A stretch of 64,000 nucleotides of DNA. Source: a virus. The position numbers and the translations under genes were made by a program. Below the pieces are notes generated by a model. That model saw only the letters and a program-made list of their open reading frames with translations, searched no databases and was not told the origin of the DNA. How positions within the stretch are numbered: position 1 is the stretch's first letter; the number at the start of each line of letters is the position of its first letter. The DNA lies in the IMG/VR virus record IMGVR_UViG_3300038436_000248, positions 8,854 through 72,853 of that record, one strand, 5' to 3'. Positions 7,618 to 47,110 of this stretch are shown piece by piece.

Positions 7618-7631
7618 TTTTCACGTGAAAA
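7618..7631. promoter_or_regulatory. parS-like palindrome TTTTCACGTGAAAA
   Basis: Perfect 14-bp palindrome, intergenic; core TTTCACGTGAAA shared with bacterial parS. Confidence 0.6.
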
Positions 7632-7772
7632 CAAATTCTGAATCCCTATGTTCGGGGGGGTTGAAAATTTGGGGCGGGGGGTGGTAAAAAGTACCTGTTT
7701 TGCCCGCTCGCCCAACAGTAAGGGCCCCCCTCAACCCCTCACCGTAGCATTTTCCCCTGGAATATCCCTCCC

Positions 7773-8186
7773 CTAGCCCATAGGCACACCCCCTCTCACG
7801 ATGTGCATTGCTGCGGGTGAGAAGAGCACCCCGCTTTCATTGGTGACCATGAGGGTCCAGAGGCCCTTTCCCTTACGCAGGCGCAGGGTAGCCAGTTTGG
7901 GGTGATCTGTGGCTTGTTCCTTGCAGGGGTTCTCCGGGCACAGCACCCATGCTTTACTGTTACCCGTGTACTGTTTTTGCAGGGCATCATACAGGGTGGG
8001 GTTGGTGCACAGGTGTACACTGGCTTCAGGGAATATGACTTCGGTGTCACCCTTGCTTACGCCCGCACGGATGGATTTGACGGCTTCTTTTGCGATCAGT
8101 CCTGACACCTCCTCTGTGTAGGGGATTACTGCGATGCGGTTCACGTTGGACACAGCGGAGCGGACGGGGAGGATTAGGTATTGCAT
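7773..8186 (-). CDS. Hypothetical protein, KYLxxP paralogue family
   Basis: MQYLILPV...IAVIPYTEEV; AGGAG RBS. Confidence 0.7.
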   Translation of the reverse strand: MQYLILPVRSAVSNVNRIAVIPYTEEVSGLIAKEAVKSIRAGVSKGDTEVIFPEASVHLCTNPTLYDALQKQYTGNSKAWVLCPENPCKEQATDHPKLATLRLRKGKGLWTLMVTNESGVLFSPAAMHIVRGGVPMG

Positions 8187-8196
8187 AGGTCTCCTC

Positions 8197-8640
8197 TTAT
8201 TGGATGTCAGGGAGTTTGACAGGGACGGTGGGCAGCTCTTCCAGGCGGAAGTTGGTGGAGGAGAAGGCGATCCCTTCCCATGTCACCTCTACCAGCAGGT
8301 AGTCATTGGGGGTGTAGGCGATCATAACCTGGTCAAAGCGTACGTCAAAGTAACGATCACGGAAGATGTCCCGTTCGCACAGGAAGGCGGGCTCTCGAAA
8401 CTCCTGACGAATGCCCGGGACGTAACAAGGGTGGTAGACTCCCGGATAGAACTCAAGCAGCCCTTCTACTTCTTCATTCTTTACCCATCGGGTGAAGGGG
8501 GCGCCCCACTTGCCCTCTGTGCCCAACCGTTCAAAGGCTGCTTTTACACCCTGGGTGAGGGGGATGCGTGCGTAGGCACTTCTTATGTCCCCTTTAGGTT
8601 CAGGGGAGCGGTATGTCATGTGGAGGATAATACTATGCAT
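8197..8640 (-). CDS. Hypothetical protein
   Basis: 147 aa; AAGGA RBS; coupled to the upstream gene. Confidence 0.7.
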   Translation of the reverse strand: MHSIILHMTYRSPEPKGDIRSAYARIPLTQGVKAAFERLGTEGKWGAPFTRWVKNEEVEGLLEFYPGVYHPCYVPGIRQEFREPAFLCERDIFRDRYFDVRFDQVMIAYTPNDYLLVEVTWEGIAFSSTNFRLEELPTVPVKLPDIQ

Positions 8641-9070
8641 GGTGTCCTTCCTTTCTTGGGTAAACTTTCAGGCCTTGCGATTCCCGTGGGGGCATGTAGA
8701 CATCATCCAGGGTGAAGGCGTGGCTGGTGAGGAACTCCCCATTTGCCAGTACGGTTATGGTGCTTTCAGCCTGGGCTTGCGTGCCGTCTATTTCAAGGAT
8801 GACCCGATCTGGCCTGACTGCTTCCAGCTCTGATAGGGGGGAGTAGTTTGGTGTGACCACGCCGAACCTGTTCAGTAGGGGTATCCAGACGGGTTGGCAG
8901 TTGCGCTTTTCGATGATGATGTCCTTGTAAAAGAAGGCAGTGCCTGCTTTCAGTTCTACTTTGGTGCGGCGCTTCCGTGAGGACAACATGCTTTCCGCTA
9001 TTTCAGGGATGAGGCGGGCCGCTATATAGCAGCCCTCTCTCCCTTGCACGCCGATTGTAAAGGTGGGCAT
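8633..9070 (-). CDS. Hypothetical protein
   Basis: 145 aa; GAGG RBS. Confidence 0.7.
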   Translation of the reverse strand: MPTFTIGVQGREGCYIAARLIPEIAESMLSSRKRRTKVELKAGTAFFYKDIIIEKRNCQPVWIPLLNRFGVVTPNYSPLSELEAVRPDRVILEIDGTQAQAESTITVLANGEFLTSHAFTLDDVYMPPRESQGLKVYPRKEGHHA

Positions 9071-9073
9071 GAC

Positions 9074-9562
9074 TTATACCTCTTCCGGAGTGAAGATGCG
9101 GTGCAGTTCTTCAGCAGGGGTGACTTCTTGCTGCCCTGCAAAGAAAGCAGGGGGGATGGCTGCGTATTCACGGGTTGGGCCATACTCCTCAAAGGATACG
9201 AACCGCAGGTATCCGTGAACATTTTCTACCTGGACGGCGTGGGTTGCACCAGCTTGCCCCCCGTCAACATCTTCCAGAATCCCCTCGAATGGGTCACTTT
9301 CTGTGAGCAGGGCCAGATCGTCGTATTCCTCTTCATAGGTGGTTACGTCGATTACGTAGATTCTTGCAAGGGCTCTGGGAACTTCATGGCGCACAAGGAA
9401 CGGTTCCCCAAAGAGGGGTAGGGGTTCCGATGAGAGGCCCTCTAAAGCGTCCAGGCCTTCCCGCATTTCTTTCGTGAGTTCCACGACCAGAACTTCATTT
9501 GGATTTTCGTACTCGTCGTCGATATACGTGCAGGGCATTACAAGGTACTTGTTCTCTGACAT
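9074..9562 (-). CDS. Acidic hypothetical protein, probable KYLxxP family member
   Basis: MSENKYLVMPC...VLVVELTKEMREGLDAL; GGAGG RBS. Confidence 0.75.
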   Translation of the reverse strand: MSENKYLVMPCTYIDDEYENPNEVLVVELTKEMREGLDALEGLSSEPLPLFGEPFLVRHEVPRALARIYVIDVTTYEEEYDDLALLTESDPFEGILEDVDGGQAGATHAVQVENVHGYLRFVSFEEYGPTREYAAIPPAFFAGQQEVTPAEELHRIFTPEEV

Positions 9563-9574
9563 GGTTTCCTCCGT

Positions 9575-10162
9575 TTAGTTTGATTGTTCGGTTTCGTACT
9601 GCGCACAAACTGCGATGATGCGGGTCAGCAGGTCTACCGGGGCATATAGCAGGTTCAGTGACCCGTGGGTTGCTCCGCTGTGTAACTGGACACTTCCTTC
9701 AGTGAGACCATTCACCACCTCAAAAGACCCTTGAGTCTTCGTGCTGCACTTGCGCCCGTCAAAGACCCGCCCACCCACAGGGGCAACCAGATTCCCCAAT
9801 ACTTCTACTTCACGGTCAAGGATGGCCTGCCGCTTGTGGGCAAACTCAATGAGATTCCTCTGCATTTCGACGACATGGGCAACGAGCTTGCGCTGAATGT
9901 CTTTGGCGATGGCTTCAGCACCCCGCTTGACCGCTGCGGTGATGGTGATCTCGTTACCTATTCGACGCACCCCACCCTGATCTGCATGGGTATAGAACGG
10001 CCTGATCTCAATGCGATCTGTGGGCCACATGAAAGACAGCACCAGACCTGCCCCCGATTCCGCATGTGTCAGGAAAGCAACCTCTCCGTTGGGGGTGGCA
10101 TCCCACCCGTCAAGATGCTTTGCGATTCCCATAACCAGCTCTTCCATCGTCAGCTCACTCAT
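9575..10162 (-). CDS. Hypothetical protein, paralogue of 10155-11057
   Basis: GW...LTHAESGAGL...ITAAVKRGAEAIAKDIQRKL aligns with the next gene. Confidence 0.75.
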   Translation of the reverse strand: MSELTMEELVMGIAKHLDGWDATPNGEVAFLTHAESGAGLVLSFMWPTDRIEIRPFYTHADQGGVRRIGNEITITAAVKRGAEAIAKDIQRKLVAHVVEMQRNLIEFAHKRQAILDREVEVLGNLVAPVGGRVFDGRKCSTKTQGSFEVVNGLTEGSVQLHSGATHGSLNLLYAPVDLLTRIIAVCAQYETEQSN

Positions 10163-11057
10163 TGAATTCCTCCATGCAATCTACACAGACCCAGCCTTCA
10201 TGGTCATTGGGGAGGGGCTCTCCGCACATATCGCAGTTGTCCCCGTCATAGTCGATGATCTCTACTTCGACCCCGTCCGATTCCTCCGCAACCTCTGCAA
10301 CCCCACCCCGTACAGTGATCACCACTTTCTTTTTGTCCACATTTGGACTCTGCGCCCCACGCAGGCGCACCTCAGCAACTACACCCGATTCTGTGTCCCG
10401 TACTGTGCTATACCCGTCCGCAAGGTGCTCCACTTCCCACTCTGGGGTGATCTCCGTGATTGCATTCAAGGCATGAATAAGGTGCCAGGCTTGTTCTTTC
10501 GTGACACCCTCCCCAGACTTCAGCAGGGCAGCCATAACCGCCTCGGCCTGGTCACGGGTCAACCAGTGCATGGTCATGGAAACACCGGAGGTATAACGGG
10601 GATAGTCAAGGGAGATTCTTGCCTCCCCTACTGTGCACGATACACCGGACACATTCCTGCTGTGATCGTGCTCCAAGTGAAGGGCATCATACTTTTCTGT
10701 AAGGCCAGTGACCCATGCCGCCTGCTCATTGGCCGCTGCTTCCCGTTTGGCAACCCGTTCCTGCCCCGCAATGAAAGCCTCAATATATCCTGGCAGCACA
10801 CGCCGCCTGATCTCGTTGGCAATCGCTTCCGCAGGCCGTGAAGCGGACACGGATATTTTTTGATAGGTCTCCATGCCCCAGATACCATTGATGGCAGAGG
10901 ACACTTGCAACCGCCCCTTTTCCAGACGCATACTGATCTTTGCCCCCGTGGCAAGGTGCGCAAGGTAGCCATAGTGTTCGTACTCATCACAGACCGCCCA
11001 GCCCTCAAAGTAGAAGGCCACTTCCCCCAGAACCTGACTCAGCTTCACTTCGCCCAT
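10155..11057 (-). CDS. Multidomain hypothetical protein with C-terminal double zinc ribbon
   Basis: MGEVKL... after GGAGGAG; ...ISVSASRPAEAIANEIRRRV...; ends CDMCGEPL...CVDC. Confidence 0.75.
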   Translation of the reverse strand: MGEVKLSQVLGEVAFYFEGWAVCDEYEHYGYLAHLATGAKISMRLEKGRLQVSSAINGIWGMETYQKISVSASRPAEAIANEIRRRVLPGYIEAFIAGQERVAKREAAANEQAAWVTGLTEKYDALHLEHDHSRNVSGVSCTVGEARISLDYPRYTSGVSMTMHWLTRDQAEAVMAALLKSGEGVTKEQAWHLIHALNAITEITPEWEVEHLADGYSTVRDTESGVVAEVRLRGAQSPNVDKKKVVITVRGGVAEVAEESDGVEVEIIDYDGDNCDMCGEPLPNDHEGWVCVDCMEEFNE

Positions 11058-11128
11058 TTGCTCCTCCTGTTTTATCGTAAGGTTGAATAAGAATAGCATA
11101 CAAACTAAAAAAGGTGATAGGATGAATG

Positions 11129-11458
11129 TCACTCCTCCGGTATTACATGCGTCCTGTGTATTTCATCGTAACGCTTTTTATACATAGCATAGGAAGCCCG
11201 CTTCTTTTCCGTGATCACATACTCGAAAAGAGATTCCAGCTCACGACGCAAGGGAGCGGATTCCTCTGGGGTGGCTGGCCTGCTGCCCCGAATAACCCCG
11301 TCATAGTCCGCTGCCCCATGCTGCCCCACGTGCATATAACTCAAACAGTGGGGAGGGTAGTTGTCAGCGACCACTTCAGGGAATAGGGCAATGACTTCTT
11401 TCATTCCACTTTTGAATACTCTAAAGATAGCAGTGATGGGTTCGGGTTCAATTGGCAT
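11129..11458 (-). CDS. Conserved-looking phage hypothetical protein
   Basis: VIALFP...CLSYMHVGQH...RPATPEE pattern; AAGGAG RBS. Confidence 0.75.
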   Translation of the reverse strand: MPIEPEPITAIFRVFKSGMKEVIALFPEVVADNYPPHCLSYMHVGQHGAADYDGVIRGSRPATPEESAPLRRELESLFEYVITEKKRASYAMYKKRYDEIHRTHVIPEE

Positions 11459-11502
11459 GGCACACTCCTTGTATAATAACAGGGCTTTCCGAAGGTTGCA
11501 TA

Positions 11503-11531
11503 TTTATAGCATCGAAACTCTAATTCGTCAA
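11503..11531 (-). promoter_or_regulatory. Sigma70-type promoter TTGACG-N17-TATAAA, extended -10
   Basis: Minus strand TTGACGAATTAGAGTTTCGATGCTATAAA. Confidence 0.85.
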
Positions 11532-11545
11532 GGGTATTCGTTTAC

Positions 11546-11559
11546 TTTTCATGTGAAAA
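11546..11559. promoter_or_regulatory. parS-like site, one mismatch (TTTTCATGTGAAAA)
   Basis: 15 bp upstream of the -35 box of the 11503 promoter. Confidence 0.5.
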
Positions 11560-11899
11560 CTTTCTTTATTGTTCATATTTGGACTCTTTCCCCTTATAAT
11601 GAAGGGCTTCCTGTGGGGGCGATTCCCCTGCCGCCTGCCGCCTTCGGGGTGGTGCTCCTCCTGTCCCCTGTCCCCTGCCGGACGTCCAGCGCCACCGGGG
11701 GCGTGTCAAGCCTGCAACCAGGCACAATACGGCACACGGGATTATAAAAGGGGATGCGAAGGAAACTGGCTGCATCCAGGTTGAAGTGGGCTGTCCGTTG
11801 CCAACGTGACCACGCATGCGGGACGTGCCTGCGACGCAGACGATTCCCGTGCCCTGTATAGGTCTATCGTTCAAGGGCATTCCCTCTCGGAGTGAGGGT

Positions 11900-11934
11900 G
11901 ATCCTCTGGGGATCAAATAGCCCCTTGCGGGGCT
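11900..11934 (-). repeat. Outlying copy of the double-hairpin element with inverted first stem
   Basis: Sense AGCCCC-GCAA-GGGGCT ATTT GATCC-CCAGA-GGATC, 22 nt after a stop codon. Confidence 0.65.
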
Positions 11935-11956
11935 GGTGCTGCAGGTTACTGGCTTT

Positions 11957-12337
11957 CTAAGTGTGGGCACCCCTTCTTTGTAGGTCTGGCCTAAGCCAGA
12001 GGCGGTAGGCCTTTCCCTTCCAGGTGAAGTCCACGGGTTTCTTTATGGTGTACACAGGAGGCAGTTCACTCTCGTACATCCACAGAGTTTCATATTCATC
12101 TTCTTCATATGGTGCCTCTATACAGATCCAGATGTGGGATGGTTTGATGTCATCTGTACGTGTGTCCTTTCTGTACAGCCCAACCCATAACCGCATCTTA
12201 TCTGAGACAGGGATAATCGTGCGATCTTGCAGCAGGTAGTGCCTGTTGTTCACGAGCTCACCACGAAGCACTCTGCACCACGCTTCTATGTCAATGCTCT
12301 TTGTGTCAAGCTGGATCACAGTTGGTTCTTCTGGCAT
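11957..12337 (-). CDS. Hypothetical protein, tandem MP(E/D)-start paralogue family
   Basis: W..VLRG...LLQ...P.....RLWV.LY shared with 12316-12702. Confidence 0.75.
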   Translation of the reverse strand: MPEEPTVIQLDTKSIDIEAWCRVLRGELVNNRHYLLQDRTIIPVSDKMRLWVGLYRKDTRTDDIKPSHIWICIEAPYEEDEYETLWMYESELPPVYTIKKPVDFTWKGKAYRLWLRPDLQRRGAHT

Positions 12338-12702
12338 GGGGCTTCCTCTCTTTCTTGGGGCTCTTCTTGAAAGATCAGCGTATACTTCCTTCCCTCAAAC
12401 ACAAAGCAATAGGGCTCAGCCATTGTGTACAGTTTAGGCAGGAACCCTTTTGGCCTCCATTCTCCATCATCATCCAGCATCTCGATAATGGGGCTGATGT
12501 AAGCGGGCTTGAAGGGGTATTCGTTTGTGTCCTTTGCATAGATCGGCACCCATAGGCGGGCATGCTTATGGATTGGCAACCTGCAGGCAGCCTGCAGAAG
12601 CATCGCTCGTTGTGGCTGGTGATTCCCCCGCAATATCTTGCGCCACTGGTTTGTTGTTTCCTTGTCCATCCTGACCCGCAGTTCGATTGTTTTATCAGGC
12701 AT
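12316..12702 (-). CDS. Hypothetical protein, tandem paralogue family
   Basis: MPDKTIEL...WRKILRG...RLWVPIY...FEGRKYTLIF; AAGGAGG RBS. Confidence 0.75.
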   Translation of the reverse strand: MPDKTIELRVRMDKETTNQWRKILRGNHQPQRAMLLQAACRLPIHKHARLWVPIYAKDTNEYPFKPAYISPIIEMLDDDGEWRPKGFLPKLYTMAEPYCFVFEGRKYTLIFQEEPQEREEAPCQKNQL

Positions 12703-12719
12703 TTGGTTCCTCCTTTAGG

Positions 12720-13506: not shown

Positions 13507-13518
13507 CTGATTTCTCCT

Positions 13519-19155: not shown

Positions 19156-19509
19156 TCAGGGGCATGTAGCCCCTGTCCTGGATTCGATGACCCCCATGGT
19201 CAGGTCATATACACGGCGCAGGAAGTCCCTTTCCTGTATCGGCAGGAAGTAGTCTTCCTTGTAGGCCACGTCGAAGACACGAGCGTCCGGGCACTCATCA
19301 GGAGCAAAGACACCATGGCATGCCCAGCACTCTTCATTGTCCTGGCCGATCAGGACAGCGCCACAGTGTGGGCATTCTGTGAGGAGACCCGTCACCATCA
19401 CGGTGTTCTCAAGGTCTGAAACGAAGCCAATGGTCTCGATCTTGGCGGGGTTTGAACCATCCAGGTTCTCCAGGAAGCTCTTGGTTGAAGGGCGGATGTC
19501 AGTTTTCAT
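19156..19509 (-). CDS. Hypothetical protein with internal double zinc ribbon
   Basis: MKTDIRP...CPHCG...CWACHG; stop lies in the ATTT linker of a hairpin element. Confidence 0.7.
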   Translation of the reverse strand: MKTDIRPSTKSFLENLDGSNPAKIETIGFVSDLENTVMVTGLLTECPHCGAVLIGQDNEECWACHGVFAPDECPDARVFDVAYKEDYFLPIQERDFLRRVYDLTMGVIESRTGATCP

Positions 19510-19516
19510 GTGAAAA
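19503..19516. promoter_or_regulatory. parS-like site, one mismatch, overlapping a start codon
   Basis: AGTTTTCATGTGAAAAGT at 19501-19518. Confidence 0.45.
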
Positions 19517-23646: not shown

Positions 23647-23769
23647 TCCAGACCTCACCTTTCTGCCCCGCCGGGGCGCTGTGTTTTGTTCGATGACCTA
23701 ATAATAGCGATACCACACGGTATTAGGTTAGTAGATATTTGCATAGCCTAAAAATAGGTGGTGGGATGC

Positions 23770-24155
23770 CAGGTGCCAAAAAAGGGCAAAAACAGGGACG
23801 CCGTCCCCCAAAAGTGGCAAAAAATGGTGCCAAAGTGGGGGAGTGTTGGGGAAAAGTGCGCAGGAGCGCCCAAAGTGAATCCCCTCAGAAATCGGTGTTT
23901 TTGTTTTCAAATTTTTAAATTTTTCACGTGAAAATTTTCCGCCCCCCAAATTTCCCCCTCTCGCAACCCCCTCCCTTCGAGCGTCAAGAATTTCCTCCAT
24001 CCCACAGTTCCATTCTCATATGTTCCAAAGTTCCCCCCACGTCTCAGTGCCCTTCTCTATGCAGCATGGAATCTCTCACGCCCCCTTGATTTTTATCCCC
24101 CGCCGTTTTTGCTTTTCCCCCCGCCGTGCACATGAACTTATTGCCCCCCGCCGCT
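23770..24155. other. Non-coding junction with phased A-tracts, C/G tracts and CCCCCGCCG direct repeats (candidate terminus, pac site or origin)
   Basis: A-tracts about 10, 20 or 22 bp apart at about 23778-23875; CCCCCGCCG at 24097, 24118 and 24145; strand switch. Confidence 0.5.
23921..23934. promoter_or_regulatory. parS-like palindrome TTTTCACGTGAAAA
   Basis: Perfect palindrome in the junction region. Confidence 0.6.
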
Positions 24156-24367
24156 GTTCCACTTATATCAATGTCTGCATATCAGAAGGAATGCAAGCGA
24201 CTACCTCTATTGTTGTGAATCAGGTACAATGGTTAGTGGGATGGCCTTTGGACTACAAGCTTTGGATGGGTGGGAATATAATATCCTTGTATCAGGATGC
24301 TGAATAATCAGTAGTTGGTTGACTGTGATTGGTATTTCTTTGGGAAATGTAAAGGAAGCGTCAAGCC

Positions 24368-25321
24368 ATGGCAAAAACAAAAGGAAACAGTAATTTACAT
24401 TTATCCCGTGCTGGTAAGACTGATGAGTTTTACACAGAAATATCCCTCATTGAGAAAGAGCTCCGCCATTACAAACACTTTTTCAAGGGGAAGACGGTTT
24501 TTTGTAACTGTGATGATCCCCAAGAAAGTAATTTTTGGAAATATTTCGAATTGAATTTTGAACGACTTGAATTGAAAAAACTTATCTCCACCCATTACGA
24601 AACAGATATTCCGTCTTATAAACTGGAGCTCAAACAGGATGTCAACAATGACGGCAAGGTGACTGCGCTTGATATTATACATACCCCGCTCCGGCAGAAC
24701 GGGGACTTCCGAAGCCCCGAGTGCAAAGAGATTATGCAAAACGCAGATGTGATTGTTACCAACCCCCCCTTCTCTTTGTTTAGGGAATATGTTGCCCAGC
24801 TAATAGAATATGAAAAACATTTTTTAATAATTGGCAACCAGAATGCGATTACATACAAGGAAATTTTCCCTCTCTTCAAGGATAATAAAACATGGCTTGG
24901 TTATACGAGTGGGCATTTCTGGTTCAGAGTCCCCGATGACTATGAAGTAAAGAAAACAGACTTCAAAATTGATGAGGTGGGCAAGAAGTGGCGGCGCATG
25001 GGAAATATTTGCTGGTTTACAAATATTGATATAGAAAAACGTCACGAAAACCTCACGCTTTTTAGAAACTACACACCGGAAAAGTATCCCAAATATGATA
25101 ATTATGATGCCATCAATGTTGATAAAACAGTCGATATACCATGTGATTACTTTGGGGTCATGGGTGTGCCAATTACTTTTATTGACAAACACAATCCGGA
25201 ACAGTTTGAACTTTTAGGATTGGATGACCATAGATGCCCATGGCTTGGTCATGGTCCTTCTCTCAACGGCAAGACACTGTATAGGCGAATAATAATCCGC
25301 CGCCGACAGCAGGGTAATTAG
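24368..25321 (+). CDS. Adenine-specific DNA methyltransferase, EcoRI family
   Basis: KTDEFYT, VFCNCDDP..SNF..YF, GDFRSPEC, VIVTNPPFSLFREYV motifs. Confidence 0.92.
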   Translation: MAKTKGNSNLHLSRAGKTDEFYTEISLIEKELRHYKHFFKGKTVFCNCDDPQESNFWKYFELNFERLELKKLISTHYETDIPSYKLELKQDVNNDGKVTALDIIHTPLRQNGDFRSPECKEIMQNADVIVTNPPFSLFREYVAQLIEYEKHFLIIGNQNAITYKEIFPLFKDNKTWLGYTSGHFWFRVPDDYEVKKTDFKIDEVGKKWRRMGNICWFTNIDIEKRHENLTLFRNYTPEKYPKYDNYDAINVDKTVDIPCDYFGVMGVPITFIDKHNPEQFELLGLDDHRCPWLGHGPSLNGKTLYRRIIIRRRQQGN

Positions 25322-25329
25322 GAGTACCA

Positions 25330-26421
25330 ATGAAAATTGAATTGAATGAGATAAAGATTGAGGAAGTTGTGGACGGATATGCGGACAGCGCAGAAAATGG
25401 CGTTGTAGGCTATGGGGGATTGCTGAACATTCGTCCGGCTTTCCAGCGTGAGTTTATCTATAAAGAAAAGCAAAGGAATGAAGTTCTAAACACCGTTCGT
25501 CACAATTTCCCTCTGAACGTTATGTATTGGGTAAAAAGTGAGGGGGGTAAATTTGAGATGCTTGATGGACAACAGAGAACGATAAGTATTTGTCAATACA
25601 TCAATGGGGACTACTCAATCGACTATCAATATTTTCACAACCTCACTACAGACGAGCAGCGGCAGATATTAGAATACAAGCTGATGATTTATATTTGCGA
25701 TGGAACAGACAAGGAAAAACTGGACTGGTTCAAGATAATCAACATCGCTGGGGAGCAGCTGACAATGCAGGAATTGAGAAACGCCATTTATACAGGGGAG
25801 TGGCTGACAGATGCTAAAAAGTATTTTAGTAAAAGTGGTTGCCCCGCCTATAATATTGCCAGCCATTACCTGAAAGGATCAGCTATCCGGCAGGACTATC
25901 TTGAAACTGTAATTTACTGGATTGCAGCAAAGGAGAATAAACAAATTGAAGACTATATGGCTGAGCATCAACATGAACCTTCGGCCAATGAATTATGGCT
26001 CTACTTCAGTTCTGTTATAAATTGGGTGAAAGTCACATTCCCAAATTACCGCAGTGAAATGAAAGGGCTTGATTGGGGTTTGTATTACAATAAATTCGGT
26101 TCTGAAAAATACGACCCGAGAGCCCTTGAAAGCAGGGTTGTTTCCCTCATGGAAGATGAAGATGTAACACGCACTGCTGGAATTTATGAATACCTTCTTG
26201 ATGGTGAAGAGAAACATTTGAACATACGAGCATTTTCAAAAAAAATGAGGCGTGCGGGCTATGAGCGGCAAAAAGGGATTTGTCCCGTATGTAAAAAGCA
26301 TTTTGAGTATGAGGAAATGGAAGCAGACCATATAAAACCATGGCATGAAGGAGGGACTACATCTGCGGACAATTGCCAGATGTTATGCAAAGATGATAAC
26401 CGCAGAAAATCAGGGAAATGA
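25330..26421 (+). CDS. DUF262 (GmrS-like) plus C-terminal HNH endonuclease
   Basis: IRPAFQREFIY, EMLDGQQRT, WFKIINIAG; CPVCK...EADHIKPWHEGG...NCQMLCK.DN. Confidence 0.9.
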   Translation: MKIELNEIKIEEVVDGYADSAENGVVGYGGLLNIRPAFQREFIYKEKQRNEVLNTVRHNFPLNVMYWVKSEGGKFEMLDGQQRTISICQYINGDYSIDYQYFHNLTTDEQRQILEYKLMIYICDGTDKEKLDWFKIINIAGEQLTMQELRNAIYTGEWLTDAKKYFSKSGCPAYNIASHYLKGSAIRQDYLETVIYWIAAKENKQIEDYMAEHQHEPSANELWLYFSSVINWVKVTFPNYRSEMKGLDWGLYYNKFGSEKYDPRALESRVVSLMEDEDVTRTAGIYEYLLDGEEKHLNIRAFSKKMRRAGYERQKGICPVCKKHFEYEEMEADHIKPWHEGGTTSADNCQMLCKDDNRRKSGK

Positions 26422-29585: not shown

Positions 29586-31475
29586 CTATGTATTACATAG
29601 GCCAGTTCCGCAGTCTTTGCACTCCTTACACCCACCATGATGAATAAGTTCTCCACCACAGTTTGGACATACCTCCCCTTCCCCTTCTCTGTATAAAACA
29701 GCCTCGTCCCTGCTGCCGTCTCTGTAAACCGTGATGCCCTTCAGCCAAAGCTCCCATGCAAGCATATAAAGATCCGCAATATCCTGGACGGAAGCGTCCT
29801 TTGGAAGGTTCACAGTTTTGCTGATGGCTGAATCTACATGGCTCTGAATAGCTGCCTGCACCTTGATGTGGTCGCTCGGTGAAACCTCATAGGAGGTTTG
29901 CCAAACGGAATCAGGAATGCCCATGGAGCGGGACAGGAGAGCTCCTGGGTGGACATAATCCACAAAGGTATCCTCCCCATGGATGCGAGTACGCCGTTTG
30001 TATTCCAGGGCAAACACGGGCTCAATTCCGGAGGATGCACCAAGCAGATTTGAGATCGACCCCGTTGGGGCGATGCTGAGCAGTGTAATGTTCCGGGTAC
30101 CGTGCAGAATAATCTCTCTTTTCAGCTTGTCTGGAAGAGTTTTGTAGAACCCTTCTTCCACAATTTGGCTGCGAGTGTGGATGTCTGTGCCTTCCCATAC
30201 ACCACAGGCACCCCGCTCTTTCGCAAGGTGGATCGTTGTTTGGTAGGCGGTACGCTTGGCAGTTCCAAAAATCTCGTCCGCCAGATCTTCAGACTCTTCA
30301 TATCGCTCCCCAAGGAACGCTACCATATCAGCGTACCCCATAACGCCAAGACCAATCCTGCGCAGGGCAATATCCGATTCCATCTGTGTGTTTGTTACAG
30401 CCCTGTGATCCTGGATTTCTTTCTCAATCACATTGTCAAGAAAGGTTACTGCCATTTCTACGGTGTCCCGGAAGCCCTCAATGTCAAAATAAGCATCCTT
30501 CGTGAAGGGGTCTACTACGAAAGCTCCTAAATTGATAGAGCCCAGATTGCAAACGCCATCCTGGTCAAGCACAACTTCTGAGCAGGCATTCGTGCCAACG
30601 ACCTTCCACCGATCCCCAAAGGCGTCGGAGTTTGATAAATCCCGCTGCGTGTCAATAAACAACACTCCAGGTTCCGCTGAGCGCCAGGCGCATGCAGCCA
30701 GCTCTGTGAACAAATCAATTGCTCGCACGGTTTTTTTCACGTGAAAACTTTTGCCCCCGCTCTCTCCATCAAACGTCAATTCCCATGGCTGATCATTTTT
30801 TACTGCATACATAAAGTCATCAGAAACCATCACGCTGATGTTTGCGTTTTCTACACGCCCAGGGAGTGTTTTGATCCGTAAAAAGTCGTAGGGTACTTTA
30901 CCGGAAAACCTGCATTCCATGCATCCCCCGCCACGACATTTTGGGCACTCAACATCACCAGCGCCTGGCCTGTAAATATCAGGATGCTTCACATCCATAG
31001 AAAACAAAAGAGCAGCTCTGCGGCCTTCCTGCCCAATAACACCCCCAACATGATTGAATAATTCCATAAATGATAAGGCGCCAGTAGATGTCTTGGCAGC
31101 GTTCGCAACAGGGGAATCCTTTGGGCGCAGCTTGCTGATATTGACACCGATTCCCTGCCCTCTGCTGGAGGCTTTCATAATTGTGCTCATCGTTTTTGAA
31201 ATGCTTTCAATGGTGTCCCCTTCAACTGCGTGTGTTGTGCAATTCATCAAGGACAAACCCCCAACATCATCCCTGCCAGCAAAGGCCAGTATACGCCCAC
31301 CTGGGCAAAACTTTTTGCTGGAGAGGGCTTCGTAAATACGTTCCTCCATCTTCGCATCGCCAGCACAAAACGTTGCTGCCAGGAACTTGTGCATCCCATC
31401 AATATTTTTTGAAAATCTTCCTGCATATTTGGTCTCGTAGACCTCTTCTGCAAATGGGTCGGTAAAAAATGACAT
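29586..31475 (-). CDS. nrdJ: Ribonucleotide reductase, class II (adenosylcobalamin-dependent) type
   Basis: PGGRIL, NCTT, TNACSE, CNLGSINL, IAPTGSIS, SGIEP, ISKTVN, KGITVYRDGSR; no ATP cone; no NrdB in window; C-terminal Zn ribbon. Confidence 0.85.
   Translation of the reverse strand: MSFFTDPFAEEVYETKYAGRFSKNIDGMHKFLAATFCAGDAKMEERIYEALSSKKFCPGGRILAFAGRDDVGGLSLMNCTTHAVEGDTIESISKTMSTIMKASSRGQGIGVNISKLRPKDSPVANAAKTSTGALSFMELFNHVGGVIGQEGRRAALLFSMDVKHPDIYRPGAGDVECPKCRGGGCMECRFSGKVPYDFLRIKTLPGRVENANISVMVSDDFMYAVKNDQPWELTFDGESGGKSFHVKKTVRAIDLFTELAACAWRSAEPGVLFIDTQRDLSNSDAFGDRWKVVGTNACSEVVLDQDGVCNLGSINLGAFVVDPFTKDAYFDIEGFRDTVEMAVTFLDNVIEKEIQDHRAVTNTQMESDIALRRIGLGVMGYADMVAFLGERYEESEDLADEIFGTAKRTAYQTTIHLAKERGACGVWEGTDIHTRSQIVEEGFYKTLPDKLKREIILHGTRNITLLSIAPTGSISNLLGASSGIEPVFALEYKRRTRIHGEDTFVDYVHPGALLSRSMGIPDSVWQTSYEVSPSDHIKVQAAIQSHVDSAISKTVNLPKDASVQDIADLYMLAWELWLKGITVYRDGSRDEAVLYREGEGEVCPNCGGELIHHGGCKECKDCGTGLCNT
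30734..30747. promoter_or_regulatory. parS-like palindrome inside nrdJ
   Basis: TTTTCACGTGAAAA, encoding part of KSFHVKK. Confidence 0.5.
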
Positions 31476-35729: not shown

Positions 35730-35732
35730 GAC

Positions 35733-35804
35733 TCCTTTCGGCGGGGTTCAAACCCGCATCTCCCCCCGTTATGGCAGGCGGAATATCGGTTTTCCTACGA
35801 AAGG
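35733..35804 (-). tRNA. tRNA-like cloverleaf 2 (non-canonical; isotype unassignable)
   Basis: CCTTTCG TA GGAA-AACCGATA-TTCC G CCTGC-CATAACG-GGGGG AGAT GCGGG-TTTGAAC-CCCGC CGAAAGG A; 72 nt; no D-loop GG, no U33, one anticodon-stem mismatch, no CCA. Confidence 0.6.
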
Positions 35805-35892
35805 ATGTTGCAATCGGCCTGGCTGCTTGGGATTTGTAGATTTTCTTTATATCGCCAGACCTGCGGGTATACATAAGGCGCCGTAGCGCTTG

Positions 35893-35964
35893 AGCCACCC
35901 CCAGGAGTCGAACCTGGCCCCCCAGCATTCACTTCTACTGGCGTGCTCTATACACCAGGGCGGC
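35893..35964 (-). tRNA. tRNA-like cloverleaf 1 (non-canonical; 10-nt anticodon loop)
   Basis: GCCGCCC TG GTGT-ATAGA-GCAC G CCAGT-AGAAGTGAAT-GCTGG GGGG CCAGG-TTCGACT-CCTGG GGGTGGC T; canonical T-arm, 5-nt D-loop, no CCA. Confidence 0.7.
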
Positions 35965-41690: not shown

Positions 41691-41934
41691 TCACATCCTC
41701 AAGCTGCGCTTTTGTGATCTCGGAGCGTGTGAGGTCTGTGAATGTGACTTCATGTTTTTTTACACGGCTCTCCCTTCGGCGCTTTCTTTGTTCATCACGC
41801 CACAAAAAGGAAAGCCATTCAGGCCAGCTTGCAATTTTGTTCCCGTAAATCTTCTCGCATTCAGAACAAATTGCAAACCGCCAAGTAATCATCTTCCCAC
41901 AACCACCGAGGCAAAAGTGCATTTTTCTACCCAT
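41677..41934 (-). CDS. Small Cys-containing hypothetical protein
   Basis: CLGGCG...CSECE; coupled to neighbours. Confidence 0.65.
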   Translation of the reverse strand: MGRKMHFCLGGCGKMITWRFAICSECEKIYGNKIASWPEWLSFLWRDEQRKRRRESRVKKHEVTFTDLTRSEITKAQLEDVIDDE

Positions 41935-42160
41935 AAGAACTACAAATGGGTTTAGCCCGAAGTTGTCCAGCTAAAGCATTTATAGCGTTCTTTTTATGTG
42001 CCCCGACGGTTGCCCTAGAAACCCCCAGCAGGGTGACGATGTGCTTTTGCTGAAATCCTGCATAGACAAGAGAAATGACAGCTACTTGCCCCTCAGGGAG
42101 CTCATCCATTGCCAGGGCAATTTCAGCTTCCAAAAATGATTCATCTATATTTTCATGCAT
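41927..42160 (-). CDS. Sigma-70 region-4 / LuxR-type HTH protein (stand-alone)
   Basis: MDELPEGQVAVISLVY.GF.QKHI..LLGVSRATV..HKKNAINAL. Confidence 0.8.
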   Translation of the reverse strand: MHENIDESFLEAEIALAMDELPEGQVAVISLVYAGFQQKHIVTLLGVSRATVGAHKKNAINALAGQLRAKPICSSYG

Positions 42161-42192
42161 ACCATTAGTCCGTTATTATATGTGTTTATATA

Positions 42193-42220
42193 AGCATAGC
42201 ACAAAAATCAAATTTGTCAA
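42193..42220 (-). promoter_or_regulatory. Promoter TTGACA-N16-TATGCT for the HTH/terminase operon
   Basis: Minus strand TTGACAAATTTGATTTTTGTGCTATGCT. Confidence 0.7.
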
Positions 42221-42263
42221 TCGTATATAGAAAGCAATTGTAGACTTTAGATGAGGCGTGTAA

Positions 42264-43850
42264 ATGACTGTATATCTACTTGGCGGAACAAAAGAAAAGA
42301 CCTTTCAGTCTAAATCAATAAGTGCCTTCCGGGGAGAGAACATGCTTTCAAAAAGTAGCCCCGCAGGGATGCACAAGTTTTATTTGTTTTGGGACCTGAT
42401 GGATACTGTTGAGGCTCATGGCTATCTACGGGCCTCAATGAGCATCATTGGTCGTTCAACCATTGGCACCTGGTGGAAGCTTGTAGAAAATCAGGAGGCC
42501 CTATCTGCGGCGACAGCTCGCAAAAAGAATCGCCTCTATCGGTTCTATAACTTTGAGGGGCGCTCCTGGGATAATATCAAGGACTTCCAAACACTCGCTC
42601 ACAAGTTCCTTCTTGCAGCGATGTACCTGCGCTACTTTGGGCAGGCAGCTTTTTACATTGTCAGAAACAAGGAAGGGGCAGCCATTGGCCTTGATACTCT
42701 TTATGGGTTTATCCAGCCCAACGTAGACTCTGAGGGATATTTCAAATCCCCTGCTTTTTACCAATACCCAACCCGCAATCCATCGGACAGAGTCGCCTTT
42801 GAAGATCCAAGGGATATTGTTTTTATTACAAATCCTGACTGGAATGGATACCCATCCGGCGGCACAGACATAGAATCCTTGTCTCAATTTGCCCTCCCAA
42901 CGGACATTTATTTACAAACAATCGCAAGGGAGTACTTGAAGAACAGAGATCGCCCTGAGCATTTATACATCCTCCCAAGTGATATTAGTGACGAGGCGTT
43001 CAATGACTTTTCAAACATGATCGCCACACGATACGCTGGCCCAAAGAATGTCGGGAAAGCTCCCATAGTTGTTCAAGGGGATCTCGAGGTAAAAGAGCTT
43101 TCTAAAATGCCTGCTGATCTTCCATACCAGGAGGCAAGAACTGCCGCACGGGAAGAGGTTTTGTCCGTTAGCGGTGTAAGCGGGGCTAAGCTTGGATTGA
43201 CAAATTCTCTTTCCTCAGCAAACTTTCGGGAAGCCCGTAGGGAATTTCACGAAACAGAGATGCTGCCTTTGTTTACGCTTATCGAACAAGGTTTCAATGA
43301 GCAGATCCATCTTCGAGAGTTCGGCATCAAGGGGTGGTTATTCAAATTCAATAACCCCGACTTCTTGACCGCTGTAGAAAAAGCCACTGTCCACATGCGC
43401 TACCACAATATGGGTGTTCTGAACCCGAATGAGATTCGGCTTGAATTAGGTCGGCGTCCAAGGGAGGACGAACAAGGGAATGCGTATATTGACCCTGTCC
43501 CGAACGATTCATTACCTGACGGGGAACAAGGCAGTCCTCCGGAAGGGCGGGAGGATAATCCAGATTCTCCCTCTCACGTAGGCGAGCCAACCCTGGACGA
43601 CCAGGATCCTCCACGAGGTGACCAGCATGACGAAGAGGGTCTTCTTTTGGCCTTACGAGATTGGGAGCAGTACTCCGTCAGCCGTATTCGTAGGGGGAAG
43701 GGCTTCCGCAAATTCTATGCAGAAGAAATACCAGCTTGTTTATCAGATGCCATCCAAGCCCAGCTTGAAAAGGCGGGCACAATACAAGAGGTTCGGAATA
43801 TCTTTTCAGAGGTCCGAAACCTAATTGAGGAAGAGGAAATCAATGCCTAA
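42264..43850 (+). CDS. Portal protein
   Basis: YFGQAAFYI, GPKNVGKAPIVV, VLSVSGVSGAKLG, E.F.E...PL...IE..FN, GVLNPNEIRLELG. Confidence 0.9.
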   Translation: MTVYLLGGTKEKTFQSKSISAFRGENMLSKSSPAGMHKFYLFWDLMDTVEAHGYLRASMSIIGRSTIGTWWKLVENQEALSAATARKKNRLYRFYNFEGRSWDNIKDFQTLAHKFLLAAMYLRYFGQAAFYIVRNKEGAAIGLDTLYGFIQPNVDSEGYFKSPAFYQYPTRNPSDRVAFEDPRDIVFITNPDWNGYPSGGTDIESLSQFALPTDIYLQTIAREYLKNRDRPEHLYILPSDISDEAFNDFSNMIATRYAGPKNVGKAPIVVQGDLEVKELSKMPADLPYQEARTAAREEVLSVSGVSGAKLGLTNSLSSANFREARREFHETEMLPLFTLIEQGFNEQIHLREFGIKGWLFKFNNPDFLTAVEKATVHMRYHNMGVLNPNEIRLELGRRPREDEQGNAYIDPVPNDSLPDGEQGSPPEGREDNPDSPSHVGEPTLDDQDPPRGDQHDEEGLLLALRDWEQYSVSRIRRGKGFRKFYAEEIPACLSDAIQAQLEKAGTIQEVRNIFSEVRNLIEEEEINA

Positions 43851-44133
43851 TGATCATAGTAGTAATGTTTGGGTTTGCGTAAAATGCTCCGCTCCGCTCG
43901 GAACCGTTTTTGGGGGGGAATTTATTCCTTCTGATGTTCCATCGAAAAACATTCGCACAAGTGGCCCTAATTTGCTTGTGACCTGTCCCAAATGCGGGGC
44001 ACAGAAAACCTGGTACACCGCAGATCAAACTGTTCGTGCGGTTTACCAATTGATAGAGGTCATTTCGTCCGCCATTGTAACCAGGGCTGTTCGCCAAGCG
44101 AGTGAAAAGACCCTGCCAACAAAGGGAGAGTAG
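43843..44133 (+). CDS. Zinc-ribbon protein
   Basis: CVKCSAPLG...TCPKCGA. Confidence 0.7.
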   Translation: MPNDHSSNVWVCVKCSAPLGTVFGGEFIPSDVPSKNIRTSGPNLLVTCPKCGAQKTWYTADQTVRAVYQLIEVISSAIVTRAVRQASEKTLPTKGE

Positions 44134-44175
44134 ACAAATTTTCCCTTATTCCGATTGGAGTAAATAGGACTAATT

Positions 44176-44439
44176 ATGAAAGATACTATTGTTCAGGTAA
44201 CCGGATTCACCGCCCCATTCCGAGGCTCTCCTGCAGAGATGTTTCTCAGCGAAGAGGATGCTGCTGTTCTGCACGAGCGATGGAATGACAGTGCTTGGAG
44301 TGAGCGTCTCGATTGCGGTGGTGGGGAATACTCAATTTCTTGTGAACAGATATTAGAGGTTCCTCTTCAGGACTTCGCCAGAGTTTATGGCAAGACCCTG
44401 TCGAGCAGAATCCTGTCCGCTGTCAGGGGGGGCATTTAG
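44176..44439 (+). CDS. Hypothetical protein
   Basis: 87 aa; AGGA RBS. Confidence 0.65.
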   Translation: MKDTIVQVTGFTAPFRGSPAEMFLSEEDAAVLHERWNDSAWSERLDCGGGEYSISCEQILEVPLQDFARVYGKTLSSRILSAVRGGI

Positions 44440-44440
44440 C

Positions 44441-45658
44441 ATGAAGCACATCGACAAGACTGCCCAGACTGTTGCAAGGAAAGTCATTGGTGTCCGTCTC
44501 TACAAGACCCTTGAAAAGCAGGATGATGGTTCTATTCTCATCCGAGGGAAGTTTACCTCTGACAACAAAGATGAGATCGGGGACATTATCACTCGTAGTG
44601 CTACGGAGGCAGCCATCCCCTCCTATCGGGCATGGGGAAACATCCGTTATATGCATCTCCCCCGCCCCGTTGGAAAAGTTACCCGGATCGGCACTGAGGA
44701 TGGCCTTGAATGGAACGAAGTAGAAATTCGAGTCATTGATCCACAGGCAGTATTTGAAGTTGAGAACGGACTGCTGACGGCTCTGTCCGTGGGTATCATT
44801 ATCAATTTTGAAGACATTGAACTTTCCCCTGATGAAGACGGGGGCTGGATTATCCATAATTACAAATTGGCAGAAATTTCTCTTGTTGATCATCCGGCGA
44901 ACTATGACGCAAAGCTTGATTTAGGCGCTATGCCAGACGCATTTCGCACATTGGCCCGAGAAAAAGGACTTCTGAAGGCCCTTGGTGAATATCAGAATTT
45001 AGGAGACCCCATGACACGTACAAAGAAAGACCTTACTCCCCAGGTTGAGGATACTGCTGAAGTTTCTGCAATGGCGCCTGAAGCCATCCTGGACGAAGAA
45101 GTGGTCGATAAGGCCATTGAGGCCCAGGAAGTTCCTGATGCCCCCGCAGAAGAAGTTGTCCCTGCAGAAGCTGAGAAAACCCTGGCTGACGCAGATATGC
45201 CGGAGGCCGCAGAGGTTATCTCGGAAGACAAAGATCTCCCTGAGGAAGAAGTCACCTTCGCAGAAATCCCTGCACCTGAAAAAGTTTCTTCTCCCATTCC
45301 CGATGCAAGTGAAGTTTTTCTTGCCGCAGCGAGCTCCTTGGAGAAGGTAGTGGCATCCCTTGAGGTTCACTTGAAAGCTTTGGCCCCGATTGCGCAGGAA
45401 GTCCCAGCGGAGGCTCCGAGTACAGCGGAGCGGTCTGTGGAGACTGCGGATCCAGCCGACAGCATTCGTGCACTCCAGGAGAAAGTCGCTTCTCTGGAAG
45501 CCCAGCTTGCCGATTTGGAAAAACCTTCCGCTCGAAAGGGTGTAATTCAAGCTGAGGGCGTGGAAGACGAGACTGTTGATGGTGATGAGAAGGAAACTCC
45601 TCAAGCCTCCACCTTGAGGGATGCGGTTCGCAATTACATGCTTTCCCGCAGCCAGTAA
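44441..45658 (+). CDS. HK97-family prohead protease fused to an acidic scaffold
   Basis: DEIGDII, IRYMH..RPVG, ALSVG, LAEISLVDHPAN; E/A-rich coiled-coil C-terminus. Confidence 0.9.
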   Translation: MKHIDKTAQTVARKVIGVRLYKTLEKQDDGSILIRGKFTSDNKDEIGDIITRSATEAAIPSYRAWGNIRYMHLPRPVGKVTRIGTEDGLEWNEVEIRVIDPQAVFEVENGLLTALSVGIIINFEDIELSPDEDGGWIIHNYKLAEISLVDHPANYDAKLDLGAMPDAFRTLAREKGLLKALGEYQNLGDPMTRTKKDLTPQVEDTAEVSAMAPEAILDEEVVDKAIEAQEVPDAPAEEVVPAEAEKTLADADMPEAAEVISEDKDLPEEEVTFAEIPAPEKVSSPIPDASEVFLAAASSLEKVVASLEVHLKALAPIAQEVPAEAPSTAERSVETADPADSIRALQEKVASLEAQLADLEKPSARKGVIQAEGVEDETVDGDEKETPQASTLRDAVRNYMLSRSQ

Positions 45659-45705
45659 TCTGATTTTACGCTGTCCATATTTAGACAAATACAAGGAATT
45701 TGAAA

Positions 45706-47025
45706 ATGCCCAAACCTTTTGAACTTCGCAAAGCTTTGACCACCTCTTCGGAAAGCGGAGCAGCCTTGCTGCCCTGCGATCTGGAGAACTTCTTGAACGA
45801 AGAGCTCCTGGAGCTGCAGCCCCTGGCCGTTCTCCTGGATGTTGTCCCCGCCAAGAGTCTCATGCACGAATACACCGTGCGCACCTCCCATCCGCAGGGT
45901 TGGTTTGAGGGTGAGACGACCCCTGCAAATCCTTTGAACTCCACCTACAAGCGGAAGTTCACCCAGCTCAAGATCCAGCGTATTTGGGGCTCCGTGCCAG
46001 GCTTCCAGCAGGCCTTGTCCGAGGAGTTCATTGACGCTTTGGAAGCAGAGCTCCGTGGCTCACTTGAGGGCATGTCAAATGTCCTGGAATACGGTTGTAT
46101 GTGGGGCGCAGCGGATGACCTGGGATTCACTGGCGATGCCTATCAGTACTCCGGCCTGTTCGCTCATTTGGCGGCCTACGCTGAGGAAAACATCATCAGC
46201 GCAGGTGGTGCCAAGATCAGCCTGGACGCCTTGGATGAGGTTGTGGCAACTGTCACTCGCTTCCGTGGCGTGGACAGCGACCTCAAGCTGTGGCTGATGG
46301 GCCTGCGCATGAAGCAGGTGCTGGATGGCTTGCAGACCAAGGTCTCCATCCCCCTGACCAACTCGGTGCTTGCAGACGGCAAGATCACCATGCGCAACTA
46401 TGCCGACATCCCGATCAATCCCACCGCCTACACTGTGCCCGCATCCGTGAGCACCTCCCCGGCTGATCTGGCTGGCACTGCTGCCGCAGGCGGTACTCTG
46501 GGCGCTGGCTCCTACACCTACCGGATCTCCTCGGTGACCGTGATGGGTGAACAGGAAGCCTCTGCCGCCACCAGCGCAGTAGTACTCGCTGACGCAAACA
46601 AGAAGGTCAACCTGGCCTGGAGCAAAGATCCGAACGCCAAGTTGTACTACATCTGGCGCCAGAAAGCCACTGCTGGCTGGCAGCTGATCGACATCGTCCC
46701 TGCCCTGACCTACTCCGCAGACGGCACGGTCAATGGCGCCATCGAGACCTATGTCGATGACGGCACCAAGACCCCCCGCAACATCAAGCCTCTGGAAGCA
46801 GGCGAGCAGAACATCTTCCTGGCGAACCGCCACAAGGATCGTGGCGTGCAGTTCCTGGGCAAGATGGACGACATGGGCGTCCCCATGGACAACCTGTTCT
46901 CCTACGTCGAGTTGGCCCGTGTCAAGGACACCTATGACTACATGCTCAAGGGATACCTGGGCTTCCGGGCGAAGTACCCGAATACTGCGGGTGCAATTCT
47001 CCGCAACGTGAAGCTGAAGGCGTAA
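45706..47025 (+). CDS. Major capsid protein (HK97 fold) with inserted Ig/FN3-like domain
   Basis: Position after the protease; SGAALLP..LE, strong codon bias, terminator after the stop; insert YTYRISSV...VNLAWS...YYIWRQ...YVDDG. Confidence 0.88.
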   Translation: MPKPFELRKALTTSSESGAALLPCDLENFLNEELLELQPLAVLLDVVPAKSLMHEYTVRTSHPQGWFEGETTPANPLNSTYKRKFTQLKIQRIWGSVPGFQQALSEEFIDALEAELRGSLEGMSNVLEYGCMWGAADDLGFTGDAYQYSGLFAHLAAYAEENIISAGGAKISLDALDEVVATVTRFRGVDSDLKLWLMGLRMKQVLDGLQTKVSIPLTNSVLADGKITMRNYADIPINPTAYTVPASVSTSPADLAGTAAAGGTLGAGSYTYRISSVTVMGEQEASAATSAVVLADANKKVNLAWSKDPNAKLYYIWRQKATAGWQLIDIVPALTYSADGTVNGAIETYVDDGTKTPRNIKPLEAGEQNIFLANRHKDRGVQFLGKMDDMGVPMDNLFSYVELARVKDTYDYMLKGYLGFRAKYPNTAGAILRNVKLKA

Positions 47026-47043
47026 GCCAAAAGCAGGTAAATC

Positions 47044-47070
47044 TGGGGAGGCGAGAGCCTCCCCATTTTT
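47044..47070 (+). terminator. Intrinsic terminator after the capsid gene
   Basis: TGGGGAGGC-GAGA-GCCTCCCCA-TTTTT. Confidence 0.9.
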
Positions 47071-47092
47071 ATTCACAACACACCCCACAAAT

Positions 47093-47110
47093 AGTTTTCA
47101 CGTGAAAACT
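47093..47110. promoter_or_regulatory. parS-like 18-bp perfect palindrome AGTTTTCACGTGAAAACT
   Basis: Intergenic, after the capsid terminator. Confidence 0.65.

Follow-up and report, generated by a model that had tools for sequence, protein, structure and literature searches.

What is a parS-like palindrome doing in so many places along the genome of a phage? The window analysed here, the whole stretch of 64,000 nucleotides, corresponds to bases 8854-72853 of an 85,676-bp IMG/VR provirus record (IMGVR_UViG_3300038436_000248, here G000). It carries perfect copies of the 14-bp palindrome TTTTCACGTGAAAA at positions 7618, 23921, 30734 and 47095, and one-mismatch copies at 11546 and 19503, both of which change CACGTG to CATGTG. 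These six and a two-mismatch copy at 61512 had been listed in a sequence-only reading of the window, and all seven coordinates and mismatch counts agree with ours. The sites had also been called parS-like on account of a common 12-bp core, and this core, TTTCACGTGAAA, is identical in the phage site and in canonical parS. Judging from the sequences, we consider it likely that the palindromes are private parS-like binding and loading sites of an orphan ParB protein, which the phage itself encodes just outside the window.

The excess of the palindrome is large. At up to two mismatches the 64-kb window holds seven copies against 0.27 expected from dinucleotide shuffles, and none of 100 shuffles reaches seven. 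The hexamer CACGTG is common by itself, with 18 copies in the 85.7-kb record, and the excess thus belongs to the full 14-mer. Five perfect copies are present in the full record, the fifth (site A) lying outside the window, and near-identical contigs add a sixth, about 75 nt upstream of the tRNA-Gly(TCC) gene at attR. In all, six to eight parS-like copies lie along the phage genome, with spacings between successive sites of 12.2, 7.8, 3.9, 8.0, 4.4, 6.8, 16.4 and 14.4 kb. The clustering of parS-type sites near an origin or a parAB locus is not seen; instead, sites recur every 4-16 kb throughout the prophage. Four of the seven good copies (A to G) are intergenic, compared to 6.9% of the genome that is non-coding (P = 7e-4, with generous calls of open reading frames, ORFs). 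Sites D and E are probably intergenic too; D itself supplies the ATG of the 117-aa frame called there, and E lies in a repeat junction of about 650 bp.

That no ParB is encoded in the window, as the sequence-only reading had stated, is literally true, and its guess that a phage ParB might be encoded beyond the window is borne out. A six-frame search of the record gives one Pfam ParB_N match, at 8340-8603 on the minus strand. It belongs to a 260-aa ORF on that strand (parB, G000:C1:7824-8606), whose start codon lies 248 bp to the left of the window's first position. The parB promoter is at 8666-8638, and the gene, its promoter and site A, the fifth perfect copy, together occupy window positions -1029 to -215. 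The protein matches ParB_N (PF02195, 8.2e-10) and HTH_ParB (PF17762, 1.5e-7; 32 bits, cut-off 22.6), and it exceeds the cut-off of TIGR00180 (67.8 bits, cut-off 58.45). Among proteins of solved structure, those closest to it in sequence are Thermus Spo0J (4.8e-15), Helicobacter and Caulobacter ParB, Noc and KorB. The AlphaFold2 model (predicted local distance difference test, pLDDT, 87) has structures of ParB-CTPgS, Noc, Spo0J, ParB-parS and KorB as its top Foldseek matches. At the C-terminus, past a disordered linker, the model has two long helices (209-229 and 236-259), a region with no Pfam match. Box II reads GHRR (GxxR) and is unchanged in 16 relatives.

The search of the record also covered parA and an integrase; an integrase is present, while no ParA-type ATPase was found (at E<=1, neither PF13614 nor PF01656 matches anything in the 85.7-kb record, whose completeness is 96%). 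A regular-expression search for the ParA-binding motif LG(R/K)GL finds none in the phage ParB, whereas the ParB of the host lineage has LGKGL. It aligns to ParBs of solved structure only from residues 42-54 of the latter onwards, and about 30 N-terminal residues are missing from it. By these sequence features it is an orphan, ParA-less member of the ParB family. The genes around parB have no function by PHROGs or Pfam, including a conserved 62-aa gene after parB, which has no family match. The 3' part of a 119-aa gene (window 1..169, minus strand) lies directly upstream of the parB promoter.

Site A (record 8625-8638, 215 bp left of the window) sits at the parB promoter, before the ribosome-binding site. 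On the minus strand, the order is TTGACC, a 17-nt spacer, TATACT, the palindrome, ATAAAAC, AGGAGG and ATG. The promoter TTGACC-17-TATACT matches the consensus at 10 of 12 positions and the palindrome starts with the last T of the -10 element. Site A thus overlaps the transcription start region, and a protein bound to it would cover the start. The order -10, palindrome, ribosome-binding site and ATG is also found in L013 and L014 (78% ParB identity) and in L017 (59%). In G001, a complete 93.8-kb provirus with 44% ParB identity, the corresponding elements are TTGACT-17-TATAAT, TATTCACGTGAAAATA, AAGGAG and ATG. Since the palindrome is kept in L017 and G001 although the surrounding DNA has diverged, it must be under selection. 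From this layout we suggest, with reasonable confidence, that ParB represses its own promoter by negative autoregulation. The sequence-only reading had posed the operator of a phage repressor as an alternative to ParB binding. The idea of an operator may well stand, with ParB as autorepressor, but not the opposition, as the two probably coincide. A family A DNA polymerase is encoded about five genes downstream of parB in every relative. In two of them (L021:14089-17022 and L119:3260-6346) a LAGLIDADG or intein insertion splits the polymerase, with lengths of 977 and 1028 aa compared to 619 aa in this phage.

The relatives also help to judge the motif itself. G001 contains seven sites at up to two mismatches, dispersed from 12.7 to 86.3 kb, and five matches to the relaxed pattern TTNCACGTGNAA against 0.20 expected (at most two in 200 shuffles). 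As G001 played no part in the definition of the motif, the caveat that it was chosen after being seen is removed. L020, with a ParB of 41% identity, has four AGTTTYCACGTGAAAACT copies in 20 kb, the same 18-mer type as site G, and the 18-mer of site G has only three exact matches in IMG/VR, two of them on contigs with structural genes homologous to this phage. An exact scan of IMG/VR for the 14-mer returns more than 118 stretches, 117 with a single copy and one (L126) with two in tandem, and this ParB is encoded in none of 80 fetched IMG/VR stretches that hold the 14-mer. Single copies are thus frequent chance occurrences without this ParB, and it is multi-copy carriage that is specific to the phage group. 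A search with a narrower alignment found two relatives in IMG/VR. The pair in L126 (3076-3110), an unrelated viral contig, consists of two perfect TTTTCACGTGAAAA copies 21 bp apart, with no relative of this ParB detected on the contig, and may be the operator pair of another system. No GenBank phage has a megablast match to 20 kb of the window, which makes this a new lineage.

The phage integrates into its host chromosome. A tyrosine integrase is encoded at the right end of the record, and the record is prolonged leftwards by contigs of other assemblies that are near-identical to it (98.9% over 8.6 kb). On two contigs of 97.3 and 94.7 kb, from separate assemblies, host genes and a hybrid tRNA-Gly precede the integrase, and the far end has an intact tRNA-Gly with tRNA remnants and more genes behind it. 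The 94.7-kb contig has host DNA on either side, the 97.3-kb contig on its integrase side. A 44-nt repeat, the 5' part of tRNA-Gly(TCC), bounds the prophage at both ends, which lie outside the window (L024:12150-12800 and L027:7640-8130). The prophage is thus integrated at tRNA-Gly and is about 89 kb long. The intact tRNA-Gly gains phage-derived upstream DNA, including a perfect palindrome, and the hybrid on the integrase side has a non-pairing 3' end. The extra tRNA 3' remnants downstream suggest earlier integrations. One host protein encoded in the flank shares 83-84% identity with proteins from metagenome-assembled genomes (MAGs) of uncultured Anaerolineaceae, and this is a temperate phage of an Anaerolineaceae bacterium. 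The sequence occurs in DNA runs of one hydrocarbon-metagenome study only, with no RNA run among the listed holders.

How does the phage site relate to the parS of this host? Canonical parS, tGTTNCACGTGAAACa, has G at position 1 of the 14-bp core, while every perfect phage copy has T...A instead of G...C. Within the 14-bp core, the phage site departs from parS at this position and its mirror only (G>T). Canonical GTTTCACGTGAAAC occurs in four of five host-lineage MAGs as exactly two perfect sites, 38-680 bp apart. In contrast, perfect TTTTCACGTGAAAA is found in none of the five (17 Mb), and thus it is not the motif of a host regulon. The sequence-only reading had considered a parS variant of the host lineage; the host consensus proves to be canonical and not the phage form, so this proposal falls. 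A one-mismatch copy in one MAG (G004) has neither phage genes nor a ParB in its vicinity and looks like chance. Like its parS, the ParB of the host lineage is fully canonical, with LGKGL, GERRLRAA, ENVQR and KSR...N...GHAR.

The change at position 1 meets a change in the protein. In ParB of Caulobacter, R173 forms a hydrogen bond with guanine 1 of parS; this arginine does not vary among parS binders, and R173 and G201 alike show absolute conservation across ParB orthologues (PMC7383237). Caulobacter R173/T179/A184/G201 align to S124/A130/E135/S152 of the phage ParB, i.e., the parS-reading residues R173 and G201 are replaced by S124 and S152. A serine at the R173 position together with T at site position 1 fits a private specificity. 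Covariation between recognition helix and site across the relatives was uninformative, because the VSLAL and PSAIEPLL segments are nearly invariant, also in relatives without the motif in the available DNA.

Several observations do not sit easily with ParB as the reader of these sites. Nearly all DNA contacts differ, as K171/S172/R173/N178/G201/R204 correspond to T/T/S/L/S/E in the phage ParB, and it is not obvious why the 12-bp core stays identical to parS despite this rebuilt reading head. Box III is degenerate, with NNERK in place of ENxxR, and the nucleotide specificity of ParB-like proteins is not predictable from sequence (PMC12704722). A role of the palindromes as operators throughout the genome is weakly supported, with a clear sigma-70 promoter at the parB-proximal site only. 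At sites B, C, D and G, promoter scans of the gene strand, which demand T at position 6 of the -10 element, find no sigma-70 consensus promoter, and the claim that every site is a promoter operator was therefore dropped. More distant relatives (L019, L021, L119, L120 and G002, 36-43% ParB identity) have no operator at the parB promoter and are mostly without the motif in the 9-40 kb at hand, so the association between motif and ParB holds for part of the family only. Finally, another dispersed motif in the same phages, GTCCACAT(G/T)TGGAC, could be an alternative target of the phage ParB.

It can be asked whether the palindromes have a dedicated binder at all, or are a product of chance, composition or restriction. 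Palindrome usage is skewed in these phages: at least 12 of the 64 six-base palindromes are wholly absent from each of the genomes G000 and G001 (median count 8-12), which indicates strong restriction-site avoidance. However, CACGTG is not avoided, and restriction-site avoidance was rejected as the cause of the palindrome since the hexamer is present 18 times in the record. With the excess over expectation reproduced independently in G001, the position at the parB promoter conserved and the copies enriched in intergenic DNA, an origin without any binder is scarcely credible. A different question is whether the host's ParB is the reader. The sites would then be parS mimics that load host ParB, and via it SMC or ParA, to position, segregate or condense the phage DNA or to titrate host ParB, while the phage ParB does something else. 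A mimic, though, would be expected to be canonical, and all six perfect copies as well as the relatives' copies have T and not the G that R173 reads (PMC7383237). The conserved site on the phage parB promoter suits autoregulation better than control by host ParB, and an integrated prophage needs no partition. Such a mimic would share the core of the canonical parS used in host-lineage genomes, as these sites do, and the host-lineage ParB is indeed canonical; the divergent contact residues of the phage ParB also make the retention of the core puzzling otherwise. Weighing this, we find the loading or titration of host ParB, which the sequence-only reading had offered, distinctly improbable.

The binder could also be another phage protein that was not recognised, with the ParB target elsewhere, for example at GTCCACAT(G/T)TGGAC. 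Most phage proteins in the record are without family assignment, leaving room for such a regulator; the second dispersed palindrome sometimes lies 30-45 bp from the first, and the relatives at 36-43% identity have ParB but not the first motif in their available DNA. Nevertheless, the core is that of the site class read by HTH_ParB proteins, and the only recognisable sequence-specific DNA binder sits behind one of the copies, in a layout kept down to 44% identity. No helix-turn-helix (HTH) of the XRE type was found anywhere in the record, and we regard an unrecognised binder as improbable. A last explanation is a dispersed centromere, through which the phage ParB and a host or unrecognised ATPase would partition an extrachromosomal form, plasmid or pseudolysogenic. 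The precedent is phage N15, whose IR sites are dispersed over the N15 genome. Here as there, a ParB-family protein goes together with dispersed palindromes, N15 SopB using four separate IR sites, IR1-4 (PMC7205306), and the junction that contains one of the phage sites has an AT-rich stretch and repeats like those of an origin. Against this stand the integrase and the integration at tRNA-Gly on two contigs from separate assemblies, the lack of a ParA/SopA-type ATPase in the record, and a ParB without the N-terminal ParA-interaction motif and about 30 N-terminal residues. The extrachromosomal prophage in need of partition that had been inferred from the window is thus not upheld, and we consider a centromere very improbable.

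We therefore return to the phage ParB as the reader of its own sites and suggest how the system could work. ParB would most likely bind the palindromes as a dimer. Bound to site A it would repress its own synthesis, and the remaining five to seven sites, 4-16 kb apart and mostly intergenic, would nucleate ParB on phage DNA only. The G>T change in each half-site and the serine at the R173 position would keep the phage and host systems apart. More tentatively, and by analogy to KorB and BisD, nucleotide-bound ParB clamps might slide from the sites and regulate or organise the phage DNA, although we would not put this at even chances. As no XRE-type repressor is detectable, there is room for ParB as the main regulator. 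It can even be speculated that in this Chloroflexota phage lineage without a recognisable CI/Cro-type repressor, an orphan ParB clamp is the master regulator or genome organiser, with private sites every 4-16 kb, clamps covering the whole prophage and a separation from the host by one base per half-site, to which a rebuilt reading head of the protein corresponds; we think this rather unlikely. If true, phages would have their own equivalent of KorB/BisD, and nature would offer a case in which a ParB has diverged from parS by a route other than that of Noc.

Orphan ParB-like proteins are enriched on prophages and plasmids, and almost all of their sites and roles are unassigned according to a 2025 survey (PMC12704722). 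The phage ParB belongs to this class by its canonical domain organisation, the lack of a ParA-binding motif and its location on a prophage. The survey assigns no sites or functions, whereas here the DNA itself reveals candidate sites, an autoregulatory layout and how the sites are set apart from host parS. What is new is thus a readable set of candidate sites, a conserved autoregulatory layout, the dispersal of the sites over an integrating phage and a one-base offset from host parS. The system is small and testable, consisting of a single protein of 260 aa, a single site of 14 bp and a variant with one base changed, and the host parS differs at exactly that position on which ParB/Noc specificity depends. 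It lends itself to the questions of how a ParB system without host cross-talk can arise on a mobile element and whether ParA-less phage ParBs are sliding-clamp regulators in the manner of KorB/BisD. Orthogonal pairs of ParB and site are also of use for DNA labelling.

Among the known systems, KorB with its operator OB on IncP RK2 resembles the phage in having a ParB NTPase fold and an HTH together with a dispersed short palindrome. Some of the KorB operators are at promoters, and KorB acts on transcription, as a sliding clamp from 12 operators on RK2 (PMC11790492). KorB is also a structural match of the phage ParB model. However, KorB has a ParA partner, IncC, and an N-terminal ParA-interacting peptide, and it doubles as a partition protein. 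For strong repression it needs the clamp-locking KorA, while the phage has no recognised KorA-like partner. In contrast to RK2, the phage is an integrating element and only one of its sites is clearly at a promoter. BisD and bisS of ICEclc (PMC12409273) also involve an orphan ParB-like protein on an integrated element, with private parS-like palindromes distinct from host parS. BisD is a CTP clamp that acts over tens of kb of ICEclc DNA (PMC12409273). BisD has an extra activator domain, a partner, BisC, and a role in gene activation; the phage protein has no extra domain. There are two bisS sites of 23 bp, 2 kb apart, compared to six to eight dispersed phage sites of 14 bp.

The phage ParB shares its domain order, fold, GxRR motif and 12-bp site core with the chromosomal ParB-parS systems (Spo0J, TIGR00180), but it differs from them in the absence of ParA and of LG(R/K)GL, in R173 and G201 both being serine, in the T at position 1 and in the dispersed sites. 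Noc and its sites (NBS) in Bacillota (PMC7383237, PMC8429893) are similar in that Noc is a ParA-less ParB paralogue, in the change at site position 1 with a matching one at residue 173, and in having many dispersed sites. However, Noc belongs to the host and carries a membrane-targeting helix, its NBS site is altered at position 6 too (A>C), and the specificity signature is QKKR in Noc against SAES in the phage. SopB of N15 (PMC7205306) is, like the phage ParB, a phage-encoded ParB-family protein with several separate single palindromes. N15 is nevertheless a linear plasmid prophage with SopA that does not integrate, while the phage described here integrates and has no ParA.

The sites within the window differ in their surroundings. 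Site B (7618..7631) is a perfect TTTTCACGTGAAAA located where two leftward genes leave a gap of 206 nt, and the ATG of a 135-aa gene follows 52 nt downstream of it; its counterpart in L013 is syntenic and has one mismatch (CACATG). Site C (11546..11559) is the intergenic one-mismatch copy TTTTCATGTGAAAA. A TTGACG-17-TATAAA element lies 14 nt downstream of it on the minus (gene) strand, read by eye and outside the pattern of the promoter scan. At site D (19503..19516) the mismatch creates the ATG that opens the 117-aa frame on the minus strand; upstream on that strand there is a GC hairpin, together with a copy of the second motif, GTCCAAATGTGGAC, at a distance of 28 nt. Site E (23921..23934) is a perfect copy at a strand-switch junction that heads a leftward gene block, with C-runs, repeats of CCAAAGTGG-like units and a stretch rich in AT around it, and the 90-aa ORF called across it is doubtful. 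The whole junction (window 23700-24360, about 650 bp) contains the CCAAAGTGG-like units, the AT-rich stretch, site E and CCCCCGCCG repeats; it is probably non-coding and looks like an origin-like or control region. CCCCAAATTT in C-rich runs occurs only twice in the 85.7-kb record, at window 7674 (-) and 23944 (+), both at most 40 bp from perfect palindromes (sites B and E).

Site F (30734..30747) is the sole perfect copy that is clearly intragenic. It had been placed inside nrdJ, and the ORF in question, 29586-31475(-), does match class II ribonucleotide reductases. At site G (47093..47110) the perfect copy starting at 47095 is widened to the 18-bp palindrome AGTTTTCACGTGAAAACT, the extension having been noted before. 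It separates the major capsid gene from the head/tail gene that comes next, 30 nt past the capsid-gene terminator (47044-47065) and 70 nt ahead of the ATG at 47178. Site H (61512..61525) is the two-mismatch copy TTTTCATGTGGAAA inside a 398-aa tail-region gene. Its membership is doubtful, as about 0.27 matches at up to two mismatches are expected anyway and this site alone could be chance.

The second near-palindrome, GTCCACAT(G/T)TGGAC, has eight copies at up to two mismatches against 0.24 expected. The exact form GTCCACATTTGGAC is at window 4936, 10335 and 19545, and variants are at window 33493, 61006 and about 47150 and, outside the window, at record positions 1712, 75567 and 81719. The motif often adjoins GC hairpins and is twice 30-45 bp from a parS-like site (D and G). 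Its perfect form GTCCACATGTGGAC recurs in the relatives L020, L022/G001 (11 copies) and L023.

Two other features of the window stand apart from these motifs. At 24368-26421 there is an opposite-strand island of two genes, with a low GC content of about 0.43-0.45, that encode an EcoRI-family adenine methylase (6e-125) and a GmrSD_N/HNH nuclease. At 35732-35805 and 35892-35964 there are two tRNA-like genes with abnormal anticodon loops, which ARAGORN reports as tRNA-???.

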